Positions 23,590 through 27,115 of a stretch of 64,000 nt of DNA are shown here, piece after piece. Each line of letters starts with the position of its first letter. Within the stretch, counting starts at the first letter, position 1. The translations under genes were made by a program, and so were the position numbers. The stretch is taken from sequence record OQ417969.1; one strand, 5' to 3'. This DNA comes from Mycobacterium phage prophiT37-1. The notes beneath the pieces are model-generated. The model searched no databases. It worked only from the letters and a program-made list of their open reading frames with translations, and was not told the origin of the DNA.

Positions 23590-23605
23590 GTATAGCGCAC
23601 TATAC
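23590..23605. promoter_or_regulatory. dyad operator-like site GTATAGCGCACTATAC
   Basis: GTATA-N6-TATAC inverted repeat in the divergent intergenic region. Confidence 0.45.
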
Positions 23606-23637
23606 GAACGAACAAGCCGTAACGGCCTTGCTTATGT

Positions 23638-23653
23638 GTATAGCGCTGTATAC
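23638..23653. promoter_or_regulatory. dyad operator-like site GTATAGCGCTGTATAC
   Basis: same GTATA-N6-TATAC architecture, 11 nt upstream of the 23664 start codon. Confidence 0.45.
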
Positions 23654-23663
23654 GTTTTGAGTC

Positions 23664-23993
23664 ATGAAAAGCCTTTATGTAAAACGTATTGCCGTCATTG
23701 GCGCCGCCATAGCCGCCCTAACGGCACTCCCAACTGCCACCGCTTCCGCGTTCCCCGACCGTTGCCTGTACGCCGCGACAGACGCCAAGACCTGCCTGGG
23801 TGCCCGACCGGCACCCTTCACGCCAGCAGGCGGCGGCGGATACAAGCCCCCGGAGGACCCGGAATGCCCCGAGGGCCAGCACCATCCACCTACAGCTCCT
23901 GGCGCGGGCGAGACTGGAGGTAACAGCGCTGGTAGCGGGTCTGCCGGTAGCGGTGGGTCCTCGGCGAGTGGAGGGGCTGGTACCGGACGGTGA
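23664..23993 (+). CDS. small secreted Gly/Ser-rich protein
   Basis: signal peptide MKSLYVKRIAVIGAAIAALTALPTATASA; Gly/Ser-rich C-terminus. Confidence 0.5.
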   Translation: MKSLYVKRIAVIGAAIAALTALPTATASAFPDRCLYAATDAKTCLGARPAPFTPAGGGGYKPPEDPECPEGQHHPPTAPGAGETGGNSAGSGSAGSGGSSASGGAGTGR

Positions 23994-24047
23994 TGGTCGC
24001 GGCTACCGAGCGGCTATACAGCCAAGCCCCAATCCTGTTGCCGCACC

Positions 24048-24065
24048 GCTATACCGCGGTATAGC
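24048..24065. promoter_or_regulatory. 18-bp perfect palindrome GCTATACCGCGGTATAGC
   Basis: TATAC/GTATA arms in the opposite arrangement; half-site GCTATAC also at 24013-24019; upstream of the Y RNA array. Confidence 0.45.
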
Positions 24066-24096
24066 TTCGTTTACAGACAACAAAACAGCGGACGAC

Positions 24097-24210
24097 GTGA
24101 ACAGGATGCAGGTCGGTTATCTCGGGGTACGCCCCCGTAGTTCAAGTTAGAACGCCCCGAGCCAAGCGGGGAAATGGATCCAAACCCGCCCAGCGCCAAC
24201 CACGTTCACG
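24097..24210 (+). ncRNA. Y RNA-like unit 1 (divergent; no clear tRNA-like module)
   Basis: 5' motif GTGAACAGGATGCAGGTCGGTTATC pairs with 3' CACGTTCAC (24201-24209); internal CTCGGGG...CCCCGAG stem. Confidence 0.35.
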
Positions 24211-24248
24211 TCGTTCCCCAGACCACAACTACATAGACACCAGGTGGT

Positions 24249-24376
24249 GCGAGCAGGACGCAGGTCGGTTACCACTTGCTAATGGAGAGGTCGCGGGTTC
24301 GAGTCCCGCCAGCCAGCCCCCGGCTGTAGCTCAGTTGGCAGAGCGCTAAACCCCGGTCAGCACACACACGTTCGCC
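24249..24376 (+). ncRNA. Y RNA-like (YrlA-type) unit 2 with tRNA-like module
   Basis: 5' GCGAGCAGGACGCAGGTCGGTTACC; T-arm GCGGG-TTCGAGT-CCCGC; 3' acceptor CAGCCAG, 3-nt loop, 5' acceptor CCGGCTG; D-arm TA-GCTC-AGTTGGCA-GAGC; 3' motif CCGGTCAGCACACACACGTTCGC. Confidence 0.55.
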
Positions 24377-24407
24377 CCATCACCAACACAACTCCATACA
24401 TAACAAG

Positions 24408-24538
24408 GTGTGAACAGGACTTCGTTCGGTTATCTCCTTTCCTGAGAGAGACGCGGGTTCGAATCCCGCCAGCCGCGAAAGTGGTTGTAGCTCAGTGGCC
24501 TAGAGCGCTAAAACCCGGACGACACCCACACGCTCACA
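24408..24538 (+). ncRNA. Y RNA-like unit 3 with tRNA-like module
   Basis: T-arm GCGGG-TTCGAAT-CCCGC; CAGCCGC-GAAA-GTGGTTG acceptor hairpin (7 bp including 2 G-U); D-arm GCTC-AGTGGCCTA-GAGC; end motifs GTGAAC / GCTCAC. Confidence 0.55.
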
Positions 24539-24708: not shown

Positions 24709-24740
24709 CCACCTACGCGCACGCACGACAGACAACCCGA

Positions 24741-24857
24741 TGTGAACAGGACGCTCGGTCGGTTATCACTCAATTGGTTAATGCAGGTTCAAGCCCTGTC
24801 GCCCGCACCCAGTGCGGGTGTAAAAGCGAAATCCCGGTCAGCACACACACGTTCACA
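24741..24857 (+). ncRNA. Y RNA-like unit 5 with partial tRNA-like module
   Basis: T-arm GCAGG-TTCAAGC-CCTGT; CGCCCGC...GCGGGTG acceptor pairing; degenerate D-arm; end motifs GTGAAC / GTTCAC pair perfectly. Confidence 0.5.
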
Positions 24858-24883
24858 TCACCCGCCCAATAGCCCCCGCGGGT

Positions 24884-24961
24884 GGCACGAGCAGGATCGC
24901 AGTCGGTTACCCCACCCCTCGCAAGGATGACGAACCCCGGCCGCCCTTCACACGTTCGCGC
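24884..24961 (+). ncRNA. Y RNA-like unit 6 (stem only, no tRNA-like module) or rsr leader
   Basis: 5' ACGAGCAGGATCGCAGTCGGTTACC and 3' CCGGCCGCCCTTCACACGTTCGCG can pair; ends 16 nt before the rsr AAGGAG RBS. Confidence 0.3.
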
Positions 24962-24990
24962 CGCCCGCACCTCTAACAAGGAGATGCACG

Positions 24991-26718
24991 GTGGACGTTC
25001 TCACCACTATCGGAACCCGTAAGACGCCGCAGTCGCAGCAGGCGGACCCCCGGCAGGTGAAGAACTCCGCCGGTGGCTACACCTTCACCATCGACGACGA
25101 GGCCCTGCTGCACCGCTTCCTCACCCTCGGCACCGACGGCGGCACCTACTACACCAACGCCGCCGAACTCACCAGGGACACAGCGGCCGTCGTGCTCCGC
25201 GCAGCAGCGGCCGACCCGGTCCGCCTCGTCCAGCACATCGTCGAGGTGTCCGTGGATGGACGCGCACCTCGGCAGAACCCGGCCCTGTTCGCCCTCGCCA
25301 TCGCCGCAGCAGCAGAGGACGTCGACGGCCGCCGCGCCGCCGCCGCAGCCCTGCCCACGGTCGCCCGTACCGGCACCCAGCTCTACACGTTCGTCAAGTA
25401 CATGGAGCAGTTCCGCGGGTGGGGCCGCGCCATGCAGCGCGCCGTCGGTGGCTGGTACCTCGACAAGCCCGTCGACCGCCTCGCCTACCAGCTGGTCAAG
25501 TACCGGCAGCGCGAAGGTTGGATGCACCGAGACCTCCTACGCCTGTCCGGCCCGACCACCGCGGACCCGGCCCGCCGCCTCGCCTTCAACTGGGCGGTCG
25601 GCAAGGGCCTGAACGACTACATTGGCAAGGTCCAGCCCCTCACCGCCGAGCAGTTGAAGGCAGGGGAGCGCAACGCCTCCCGGCCCAAGCTGCCTAACGT
25701 CGAGCTGGCGGTTGACCACCCCCTGGCGATCATCGAGGACTTCGAGGACGCCCAGCGCGCCACCCAGCCCAAGGAATGGGTGAGCATCATTCGACGCGGT
25801 AACGGTCTTCCCTGGGAAGCGCTGCCCGACGTCGCGCTCAACTTCACGGCCGTGTGGGAAGCGCTGATTGAGCACGGGTTGCCGCAGACGGCTTTGATGC
25901 GCCAACTGCCTCGTTTGACCCGGCATGGAGTCCTGCATGGTGAATATCTGGACCGTGTCGTAGCTCAGCTCCAGGACGCCGACCGTCTACGCAAGGGCCG
26001 CGTCCACCCGGTCAACGTCCTGATCGCGCAGCGCACCTACGCGTCCGGGCGGTCGGCGCGCGGCGACTCCACCTGGACGCCGGAACGCAAGGTCGTGGAC
26101 GCCCTGGACGCCGCGTTCTACAACGCCTACGGAGCGGTAGAGCCGTCGGGCGAGCCGTCGGGCAAGCGCACCTTGCTGGCGCTGGATGTGTCCGGCTCTA
26201 TGGGCGCCGCTATCTCGGGTATGCCGCTGACATGCCGCGAGGCCGCAGCCGCACTCGCACTCGTCACCGCCAACGTCGAGCCGGACCACGAGGTCGTCGG
26301 CTTCACTGACGGCCGTCAGGCCGCGCGCTCGGGCTACGGCTACCGGTCCCAGCACCTCATCACCCCGCTGGACATCACGCCGCGCCGCCGCCTCGACGAC
26401 GTGTGCCGGTACACCGCCGGACTCAGCTTCGGCGCCACCGACTGCGCACTCCCGATGCTGTGGGCACAGCAGTCCAAGCGCGAGTTCGACACGTTCGTGG
26501 TCATCACCGACAACGAGACCTGGTTCGGCGACGTCCACCCGAACCAGGCGCTCCGCGACTACCGCAACAAGATGGGCATCAACGCCCGCCTGATCGTTGT
26601 CGGCATGACGGCAACCCGCTTCACCATCGCCGACCCCGCCGACCCCGGCCAGCTCGACGTATCCGGTTTTGACACGGCGGTACCACAGTTGATCTCGGAC
26701 TTCTCGGCCGGACTGTAG
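24991..26718 (+). CDS. rsr: Ro60 ortholog (Rsr): TROVE domain plus C-terminal vWA domain
   Basis: N-terminus GGYTFTIDDEALLHRFLTLGTDGGTYY...PALFALAIAAA aligns with the Ro60 TROVE signature LHRFL.(F/L)G.(E/D)GGTYY...P.LFALAI; vWA MIDAS LLALDVSGSMG near 26150-26180; AAGGAG RBS. Confidence 0.9.
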   Translation: MDVLTTIGTRKTPQSQQADPRQVKNSAGGYTFTIDDEALLHRFLTLGTDGGTYYTNAAELTRDTAAVVLRAAAADPVRLVQHIVEVSVDGRAPRQNPALFALAIAAAAEDVDGRRAAAAALPTVARTGTQLYTFVKYMEQFRGWGRAMQRAVGGWYLDKPVDRLAYQLVKYRQREGWMHRDLLRLSGPTTADPARRLAFNWAVGKGLNDYIGKVQPLTAEQLKAGERNASRPKLPNVELAVDHPLAIIEDFEDAQRATQPKEWVSIIRRGNGLPWEALPDVALNFTAVWEALIEHGLPQTALMRQLPRLTRHGVLHGEYLDRVVAQLQDADRLRKGRVHPVNVLIAQRTYASGRSARGDSTWTPERKVVDALDAAFYNAYGAVEPSGEPSGKRTLLALDVSGSMGAAISGMPLTCREAAAALALVTANVEPDHEVVGFTDGRQAARSGYGYRSQHLITPLDITPRRRLDDVCRYTAGLSFGATDCALPMLWAQQSKREFDTFVVITDNETWFGDVHPNQALRDYRNKMGINARLIVVGMTATRFTIADPADPGQLDVSGFDTAVPQLISDFSAGL

Positions 26719-26724
26719 GAACGC

Positions 26725-26955
26725 GTGGACCCAAGGGCACAGCAGGCGCGGGAGCATCACCGGTTGCAGCGTGATGCCTCCCGCGTCGGCGAACAACACC
26801 GGTACGAACGGGACCGGCTAGTTCGCGAGTTATGGGCCACCGAACGAGAGAAGTGGACCTACGCCACTCTGGCCGCAGCGGTGACGTGCAGCCCGGGACT
26901 GATCCAGAAGATTCTCGACGGCCGCACCCCAACCGCCCAACACGTCACCAGGTAA
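26725..26955 (+). CDS. small HTH protein, candidate regulator of the island
   Basis: TYATLAAAVTCSPGLIQKILDGR is HTH-like; 6 nt downstream of rsr. Confidence 0.45.
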   Translation: MDPRAQQAREHHRLQRDASRVGEQHRYERDRLVRELWATEREKWTYATLAAAVTCSPGLIQKILDGRTPTAQHVTR

Positions 26956-26972
26956 GGAAGGCAGACGCCGCA

Positions 26973-27086
26973 ATGGATTTCAACACTTCGCTCCAGAGCC
27001 TGAACGGCTGGCCCGCCGCGGTCGTCGTTGTCGTTGCGGTGCTCTGCGTGACGGCCGTGATCATCGCGGTTATCCGCGCCGACTGA
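26973..27086 (+). CDS. small membrane protein (37 aa)
   Basis: single TM helix AAVVVVVAVLCVTAVIIAVI. Confidence 0.35.
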   Translation: MDFNTSLQSLNGWPAAVVVVVAVLCVTAVIIAVIRAD

Positions 27087-27099
27087 CGTTCGACATAAC

Positions 27100-27115
27100 G
27101 TATAGCGAACTATAC
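27100..27115. promoter_or_regulatory. dyad operator-like site GTATAGCGAACTATAC flanked by CATAAC/GTTATG
   Basis: third GTATA-N6-TATAC site, 10 nt upstream of the 27126 start codon. Confidence 0.45.

Follow-up and report, generated by a model that had tools for sequence, protein, structure and literature searches.

Introduction

The operators of phage repressors and of TetR/Xre-type repressors, such as lambda OR/OL, those of phages 434 and P22, and tetO, are dyads that overlap sigma-70 promoters. In the Streptomyces phage phiC31, the immunity repressor binds conserved inverted repeats (CIRs), through which early lytic promoters are controlled. Cluster K start-associated sequences are asymmetric motifs that take in the ribosome-binding region and are believed to influence translation. 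Lambdoid morons consist of a promoter, a gene and a terminator inserted in the phage backbone. Stoperators, described in Clusters A and MabJ, are asymmetric sites of 13-14 bp, oriented with transcription and present in 14-30 copies per genome; their ligand is the immunity repressor, and a block to elongation has been proposed as their effect (PMC9934374). Here, we analyse 64,000 nt of Mycobacterium phage prophiT37-1 (OQ417969.1, one strand; hereafter the window), a Cluster MabK prophage of Mycobacterium abscessus. We describe a family of short dyads that are probably operators for a dimeric repressor, placed in the SigA-type promoters of accessory ('moron') units.

The MabK sites are like the operators of lambda, 434, P22 and tetO in their size (14-17 bp) and two-fold symmetry, and in having half-sites whose centres are separated by about one turn of the helix. 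Another common feature is the position between or on top of the -35 and -10 hexamers, where a bound repressor would keep RNA polymerase out. Unlike these operators, the MabK sites are found outside the immunity region, seven of them over 50 kb at accessory promoters; their core is apparently TATA-N6-TATA, with a swap of the flanking G/C tolerated, and for their regulator there are candidates only. As with the phiC31 CIRs, dispersed intergenic copies of a dyad in an actinobacteriophage each come with a conserved promoter, but the motif is absent from the MabK immunity region, the promoters are SigA-like and the genes behind them are accessory cassettes. Stoperators are likewise short conserved sites repeated in the intergenic gaps of a mycobacteriophage genome, whereas the MabK sites are symmetric, fixed within promoters and absent from the immunity region. 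The copy at the early lytic promoter that is typical of stoperators is also missing, since we found none in window positions 1-5100 or in stretch L002. The start-associated sequences resemble the MabK sites in being conserved a short, constant distance ahead of several start codons; they differ in that the MabK sites are symmetric, lack a Shine-Dalgarno sequence and are framed by -35 and -10 hexamers. The defining features of stoperators and of start-associated sequences were thus sought and not found, and we reject membership of either family. The analogy with lambdoid morons is that the gene of a secreted protein has its own promoter and a terminator-like hairpin, and that a toxin/antitoxin operon is antisense to the early genes. 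Yet, one operator is common to the accessory cassettes, which implies coordinated rather than independent constitutive control.

The working principle is an ordinary operator-in-promoter arrangement. What is specific here is the use of one operator for seven accessory promoters, in a circuit that seems not to depend on the immunity repressor. The dyad apparently controls a Y RNA/Ro module and also, in the lineage of the window, a polymorphic-toxin locus. We came across no description of the motif in the MabK literature, and a full-text literature search for its sequence gave only primers. The prophages of M. abscessus encode toxin-antitoxin systems, polymorphic toxins and further proteins with a supposed effect on virulence and phage defence, and little is known of how these genes are regulated. 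With one motif, seven promoters and few candidate regulators, a shared operator offers a testable handle on when these accessory genes are on, and it predicts how the Y RNA/Ro module of a phage is transcribed. Promoters that are probably leaderless and contain their own operator might also provide a regulated expression tool for mycobacteria.

A family of dyads in intergenic DNA

An earlier note on this DNA had reported three GTATA-N6-TATAC sites and an 18-bp perfect palindrome, and all four elements are found where it had placed them (Table 1). Their frequency is not that of random sequence: GTATA-N6-TATAC occurs three times in the window (G+C content 64.8%), against 0.00 in 100 dinucleotide-preserving shuffles. 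The core common to the four elements is TATA-N6-TATA. Exactly four such cores occur in the 64 kb, with 0.02 expected, and 8 of the 29 TATA tetramers of the window fall within the four sites. The palindrome had been described as having swapped arms. Its sequence was given correctly, but there is a simpler view, namely that it keeps the same TATA-N6-TATA register and exchanges the flanking G/C: the canonical sites read G-TATA-G...C-TATA-C and the palindrome C-TATA-C...G-TATA-G. The overall motif is S-TATA-S-N4-S-TATA-S (S = G or C), mostly in the form GTATAG-N4-CTATAC; the swapped form, CTATAC-N4-GTATAG, has a single occurrence in the window even when two mismatches are allowed. The half-sites are related by two-fold symmetry and spaced by about 10 bp, which puts the A/T cores one helical turn apart.

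All four elements are intergenic and none lies within a coding region, in agreement with the promoter-like gaps described earlier. The third canonical site was rightly said to lie 10 nt upstream of the 27126 gene. This distance between dyad and ATG is also that of the brnT-like gene (ATG 23579, minus strand) and of the secreted-protein gene (ATG 23664). A match with one mismatch at 24059-24074 was considered as an additional site and rejected because it is unconserved in relatives.

Table 1. Dyad sites, putative promoters and genes of the 23-27 kb region of the window.
Feature	Position	Strand	Description
Site O1	23590-23605	-	GTATAGCGCACTATAC as listed, GTATAGTGCGCTATAC on the minus strand; spacer and -10 of P_brnT
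Site O2	23638-23653	+	GTATAGCGCTGTATAC; spacer and -10 of P_sec
Putative variant operator O_Y	24048-24065	+	GCTATACCGCGGTATAGC; 18-bp perfect palindrome, core CTATAC-CGCG-GTATAG, within putative P_Y
Site O3	27100-27115	+	GTATAGCGAACTATAC; spacer and -10 of the 27126 operon promoter
Putative P_brnT	23587-23615	-	-35 TTGTTC 23610-23615; spacer 17 nt; -10 TACATT 23587-23592
Putative P_sec	23628-23656	+	-35 TTGCTT 23628-23633; spacer 17 nt; -10 TACGTT 23651-23656
Putative P_Y	24038-24067	+	-35 TTGCCG 24038-24043; spacer 18 nt; -10 TAGCTT 24062-24067
Putative P_27126	27090-27118	+	-35 TCGACA 27090-27095; spacer 17 nt; -10 TACAGT 27113-27118
BrnT-like toxin gene (23328-23579) and downstream antitoxin reading frame	23128-23579	-	Unit of P_brnT
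Gene of 109-amino-acid protein	23664-23993	+	Signal-peptide-like N-terminus; unannotated in prophiGD43A-5
Cargo downstream of O_Y	24089-26955	+	Y-RNA-like units, rsr, gene of 76-amino-acid helix-turn-helix protein
Gene of 76-amino-acid helix-turn-helix protein	26725-26955	+	Weak HTH_31 match
27126 gene, first of rightward operon	27126-27455	+	109 amino acids; phrog_14658, function unknown

Anatomy of the putative promoters

Mycobacterial SigA promoters have the consensus TTGnnn (-35) and TAnnnT (-10), and it is from this consensus that promoters were assigned in silico. The four window sites have one and the same geometry relative to the assigned hexamers. The dyad starts 4-5 nt past the -35 and runs 3 nt into the TAnnnT hexamer. 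The three sites that we found in the right arm of the phage, past the end of the window, share this arrangement with their in-silico hexamers, with an 8-nt offset at the promoter of the gene for gp109 (named after its product in the relative prophiGD43A-5). A strict scan of positions 22500-28000 gave P_27126 as its sole sigma-70-type match. Another account of a dyad at this place was rejected: the symmetry could be caused by a bidirectional promoter, but the -35 and -10 hexamers of the opposite strand are poor at most sites. Activation of the MerR type, by untwisting of a long spacer, is unlikely. A MerR-type operator would be centred in a spacer of 19-20 bp, whereas the spacers in the window are of 17-18 nt; the gp109 promoter alone would have a spacer of ~19 nt.

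The ATGs at 23579 (minus strand), 23664 and 27126 each lie 7 nt past the -10, and a Shine-Dalgarno sequence is absent from the 10 nt that precede them (attctgagtc, gttttgagtc and agtctgtgtt). Leaderless mRNAs are common in mycobacteria, and because of this short distance and the missing Shine-Dalgarno sequence the mRNAs of the brnT-like, secreted-protein and 27126 genes are probably leaderless. The second and third promoters of the right arm have leaders of ~42 nt with GGAAGG or AGGAGG before the ATG, which is consistent with a leaderless reading of the others.

Copies beyond the window and conservation

The window is the left 64 kb of a MabK prophage that is ~95% identical to prophiGD43A-5 (MW584167, 76.5 kb; host M. 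abscessus GD43A), itself assigned to Cluster MabK (PMC8092301). The two are collinear over the entire window from position 1, which is the attL end and lies within the integration-dependent immunity repressor gene. Most segments are ~93-97% identical (96% for 23300-27300) and a few have been replaced. A second published MabK prophage is prophiT37-1, for which rightward transcription of a polymorphic-toxin cassette was described (PMC9934374). A public contig (L223) has 100% identity to window positions 52467-64000, extends 9.6 kb past the window end and shows this same rightward polymorphic-toxin arrangement. We used its extension as the right-arm continuation of the window's own phage.

The sites do not merely bracket the Y RNA/Rsr island, as the earlier note had it, because three more copies occur in the right arm. 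TATA-N6-TATA is found three times in the right arm of prophiGD43A-5, against 0.02 expected, always in intergenic DNA. The extension of L223 has the same three sites at ~68.0, 72.2 and 72.6 kb in window-equivalent coordinates, which makes seven dyad promoters per phage, spread over ~50 kb. All six canonical sites of prophiGD43A-5 and its palindrome fall within the non-coding DNA, which is ~6% of the genome by a hand estimate from the annotation tables. The first right-arm site lies 7 nt upstream of a gene of 73 amino acids (aa), which encodes gp109 in prophiGD43A-5 and is followed, in the window's lineage, by a WXG-100 gene and the polymorphic-toxin cassette. The second precedes a plus-strand open reading frame (ORF) of 105 aa and the third a gene of 394 aa (phrog_1362, function unknown).

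When homologous promoters were searched for by the signature of their gene start, irrespective of the dyad, the dyad was intact in 56 out of 56. Likewise, eight loci retrieved by an exact match to the BrnT protein have kept all four window-type sites (32/32). Within promoter classes, none of the 60 columns in the arms is variable, compared with 17% in the central six positions, 25% in the -35 and 24-34% in the flanks; this count is biased by the way the set was collected, a bias removed in the signature- and BrnT-anchored sets. The individual sites vary in the same manner. O1 is identical in nine signature-anchored promoters, and in the BrnT-anchored set its centre differs in two of eight loci, with intact arms (GTATAGTTCACTATAC). 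In relatives, O2 reads GTATAGCTCTGTATAC or GTATAGCTCTATATAC, with unbroken TATA cores, and the N4 centre of O3 takes at least seven forms (CGAA, CAGA, CGCA, CGGA, CGCG, TGCA, CTGA) between constant arms. Even in a lineage with 66-79% DNA identity the three right-arm dyads are all retained, while the flanks have heavily diverged. RNA polymerase is not known to require the left arm, and the invariance of that arm therefore speaks for a DNA-binding protein of two-fold symmetry.

A scan of IMG/VR for GTATAGCGNNCTATAC gave 93 stretches. All contigs with multiple matches are MabK-like prophages of M. abscessus, from isolate genomes. BLAST of a 39-nt promoter probe against 50,697 phage records matched prophiGD43A-5 only. 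Among the matches listed for GTATAGCGNNCTATAC in genome contigs were chance hits in unrelated bacteria. Several contigs of one Burkholderiales metagenome-assembled genome (JBBQSS01; L103, L112, L148 and L178) have GTATAGCGNNCTATAC 47-67 nt into the fetched stretch; there it resembles an insertion-element terminal repeat, without relation to the phage motif. At 34605-34620 we noticed GTATCACGTGTTATAC, which departs from the dyad by one mismatch (TATC-N6-TATA), in a gap of ~460 bp after the ORF at 34204-34563. It is kept in prophiGD43A-5 (L001 30745-30760), and a hairpin with a T-rich tail lies downstream of it at ~34652-34682.

The palindrome upstream of the Y RNAs

The palindrome is invariant in nine aligned sequences (the window and eight loci), as well as in the eight BrnT-anchored loci. 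Read as RNA, it gives a 7-bp hairpin followed by TTCGTTTAC, a terminator-like arrangement for the secreted-protein gene. Judging from its sequence, it could be the terminator of this gene, the operator of the Y RNA promoter, or both. The strongest competitor to our reading of the sites concerns this element, which might be solely the intrinsic terminator of the secreted-protein gene and no operator at all. A terminator scan lists it (7-bp stem, 4-nt loop, tail TTCGTTTACA), its hairpin is present in the predicted minimum-free-energy fold, the tail is richer in T in relatives (TTCGTTTTC), and it stands 55 nt past the stop codon. Nevertheless, we find this account rather unlikely. The stem has just three G-C pairs and is itself the operator half-site 7-mer GTATAGC, of which there are three within 24013-24065. 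Furthermore, the palindrome holds the TATA-N6-TATA register and sits between the -35 and -10 of P_Y with the geometry of the other sites. Taken together, the half-site stem, the register and the promoter geometry render a purely coincidental hairpin implausible. One of the 7-mers, GCTATAC at 24013-24019, stands alone 35 nt upstream of the palindrome. All relatives have kept this half-site, and its role could be auxiliary.

Proposed operators for a dimeric repressor

That the sites are operators for one dimeric regulator had been proposed before. We find support for a single family, located in promoters and with the anatomy of operators that would act on four transcription units, but not for either of the two regulators then named (see below). 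The sites have what is expected of operators, i.e. dyad symmetry, enrichment in non-coding promoter DNA, a fixed position relative to the -35 and -10, and arms that are conserved while the centre and the flanks drift. If a dimeric helix-turn-helix (HTH) protein were bound at about -26 to -11, the spacer and the upstream half of the -10 would lie beneath it. The bound dimer would exclude RNA polymerase and block the formation of the open complex, which would lead to the joint repression of all units. In the window, these would be the brnT-like operon, the gene of the secreted 109-aa protein and the 27126 operon, together with the Y RNA array, rsr and the 76-aa HTH gene, controlled via the variant operator with swapped flanks. 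Beyond the window, the 73-aa HTH gene and then the WXG-100/polymorphic-toxin cassette, the 105-aa ORF and the 394-aa protein would be added. From their gene content, the controlled units appear to be accessory cassettes and not the lytic backbone. It has been reported from RNA-seq that prophiGD43A-5 is mostly silent in the lysogen, except for the polymorphic toxin-immunity (PT-Imm) locus (PMC8092301). This silence is compatible with repression.

Several points weigh against this reading. Promoter activity, transcription starts and repression are all inferred from sequence, and the silence in the lysogen is that of a published summary for most of the prophage. The palindrome with its swapped flanks might bind another protein, and it is also terminator-like. 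The best candidate for the regulator, gp109, is encoded outside the window and has no significant match among solved structures; a Foldseek search with its model also gave nothing significant. Since the arms are constant in all lineages, co-variation of protein and site cannot single out a regulator. Finally, the reader of the dyad might be a protein of the host, a case that we take up below.

One might go further and see in these sites a second repressor-operator circuit, in which an autoregulated gp109-like HTH protein acts on seven operators independently of the immunity repressor and so governs the toxin-antitoxin operon, the secreted protein, the Y RNA/Ro RNA-surveillance module and the type VII-secreted polymorphic toxin locus, the dyads serving at the same time as joints for the exchange of cassettes between phages. 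We regard this extended scheme as possible but doubtful.

Exchange could also be the whole story. If the dyad had no dedicated binder, the 16-mer might be a promoter cassette, or a recombination joint of mosaic modules, spread by duplication. As a conserved cassette or joint, it would persist by carrying the -10 and the spacer. A mosaic junction is located exactly at site 3, where the dyad is followed in some relatives (L036, L226) by another first gene, of 83 aa. Exchange within the arms would also account for the unusual variability of the site-3 centre. Yet, the left arm and the outer G/C, which have no known role in SigA recognition, are constant even at ~70% identity, whereas the -35 and the flanks change. 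Moreover, the seven promoters have little sequence in common outside the dyad, and simple duplication of a cassette is thus no explanation. This makes the account without a binder an improbable one.

The dyad could instead be read by a transcription factor of the M. abscessus host, which would have joined the accessory genes of the prophage to a host regulon. Prophage accessory genes are often tied to host physiology, and no phage regulator has been proven for these dyads. Against such a view stand the IMG/VR contigs with multiple matches, all of them MabK-like prophages, the GenBank phage collection, where only prophiGD43A-5 matches, and the presence of seven copies in a single 76-kb element. 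We hold control by the host to be unlikely, to about the same degree.

Candidate regulators

If the sites are operators for a dimeric repressor, this regulator is most likely encoded by the phage and distinct from the immunity repressor. The best candidate is gp109, favoured because its own promoter carries the dyad, although we name it only tentatively and it may well prove to be the wrong protein. It is found only in these prophages. The family has a weak match to phrog_686 ('HTH DNA binding protein'), one remote homologue passes the Pfam HTH_3 threshold, and the structure model shows a long helix and then a C-terminal helix-turn-helix. The putative recognition helix, RD-IYKI, is kept across variants of 58-70% identity. 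The gene stands alone, with the dyad in its own promoter in every copy seen, a layout that is usual for an autoregulated repressor. In the diverged lineage the gp109 homologue is 58-62% identical; a gp116-like protein is likewise retained there, at ~62%. The 'TetR-like' label of gp116 could not be reproduced with Pfam, PHROGs or NCBIfam, and searches against solved structures gave nothing significant for the gp116-like protein or for the 76-aa HTH protein encoded behind rsr. There is little reason to expect that the gp116-like protein is the regulator.

The 76-aa HTH protein was one of the two regulators named earlier. It is small and has a predicted C-terminal helix-turn-helix (the weak HTH_31 match and a structure model), its gene lies in the operon behind the variant operator, and it is present in every MabK relative examined. 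As regulator, it would act on its own operon, Y RNA/rsr, as well as on promoters nearby. However, homologues of 54-75% identity lie directly or closely after Ro/TROVE genes in Sparky, Farewell, BearBQ, Cashline and three further contigs (among L237-L240), and the six such Ro loci that were scanned, ~65 kb in all, have zero TATA-N6-TATA. The HTH segment WTY..LA.AV.CSP.L is conserved across these dyad-free phages, pointing to a common target that is linked to the Ro module. Hence, the 76-aa protein travels with Ro and not with the dyad. We think it would be surprising if it were the regulator. It belongs to a mobile Ro module that in MabK phages has been set behind a MabK-type promoter. We also considered that it might be a paralogue of gp109. 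The two families have no detectable homology (no BLASTP alignment, hhalign probability 0.8%) and their models are alike solely in the general architecture of a long helix followed by the HTH, so that this was rejected. Small HTH proteins encoded after Ro (in the window; L097 6001-6210; L098 5992-6207) occur in mycobacteriophages, Gordonia phages and metagenomic phage contigs, with an invariant N-terminal motif, D-x-RAQQAREHH. This suggests a functional partner of Ro/Y RNA rather than a general regulator.

The antitoxin of the brnT-like operon, which is BrnA-like, was set aside as a common regulator. It has no detectable DNA-binding domain, and autoregulation of a toxin-antitoxin pair would leave six other promoters unexplained.

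The other regulator named earlier, the immunity repressor acting at a distance (Xre-type; window 3-302, minus strand), is an Xre/RstR/DicA-like HTH protein that could use dispersed sites as the Cluster A repressor does at stoperators, such sites being known from Cluster A and MabJ (PMC9934374), but it is a most improbable choice, since operators at the early lytic promoter are indispensable to such a repressor and the divergent control region (~300-460) has no TATA-N6-TATA even at one mismatch, carrying GCGCAT-GGT-ATGCGC (305-319) and TGCGC repeats instead. This different, 15-bp dyad overlaps the repressor start codon (ATG 302-300, minus strand) and several TGCGC(A/G) repeats are spread over 296-460; judged by sequence and position, they are probably the immunity operators.

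Predicted transcription units and neighbouring genes

The identification of the brnT-like/antitoxin unit is based on the annotation of prophiGD43A-5 and on a match to phrog_36779 'toxin' (E 6e-36). The antitoxin ORF is listed at 23128-23376 (82 aa), and it is shorter in the annotations or gene calls of relatives (64-67 aa). The antisense placement of this toxin/antitoxin operon relative to the early genes was remarked upon for prophiGD43A-5 by Dedrick et al. (PMC8092301). The secreted-protein gene on the other strand is clearly coding, given that 81 of the 95 substitutions among 11 homologues are at third codon positions and that relatives differ by an in-frame 9-nt indel. This pattern indicates that the gene is under purifying selection.

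The cargo behind the palindrome opens with about six Y-RNA-like/tRNA-like units, from 24089 to ~24975. They are repeat units with YrlA and tRNA matches at E ~1e-6, the YrlA matches scoring under the gathering score. The first starts near 24097, ~30 nt past the -10 of P_Y. The rsr gene follows at 24991-26718, with a Ro-like annotation and Pfam matches to TROVE and vWA_Ro60.

The segment 28723-33585 is without equivalent in prophiGD43A-5. Among its ORFs are one for a DUF5642 protein (32109-32789) and one for a SUKH-1/SMI1-KNR4 immunity-like protein (32790-33572), and the segment may be a further toxin-immunity cassette in the operon behind site 3. PADLOC gave no defence-system matches for the genes behind site 3 or for gp115.

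Two observations concern the genes behind the right-arm sites. Gene 114 of prophiGD43A-5 is annotated on the minus strand (L003 24259-24576; ~73258-73575 of the record). In the overlapping plus-strand ORF of 105 aa, 175 of 264 substitutions are at third codon positions, and gene callers on other contigs pick this ORF. By this codon pattern the deposited annotation is probably on the wrong strand. The 394-aa phrog_1362 protein (L003 24715-25899; L233 13301-14488) is 91% identical between lineages in which neighbouring proteins share just 60-70%, a difference that points to unusually strong constraint.

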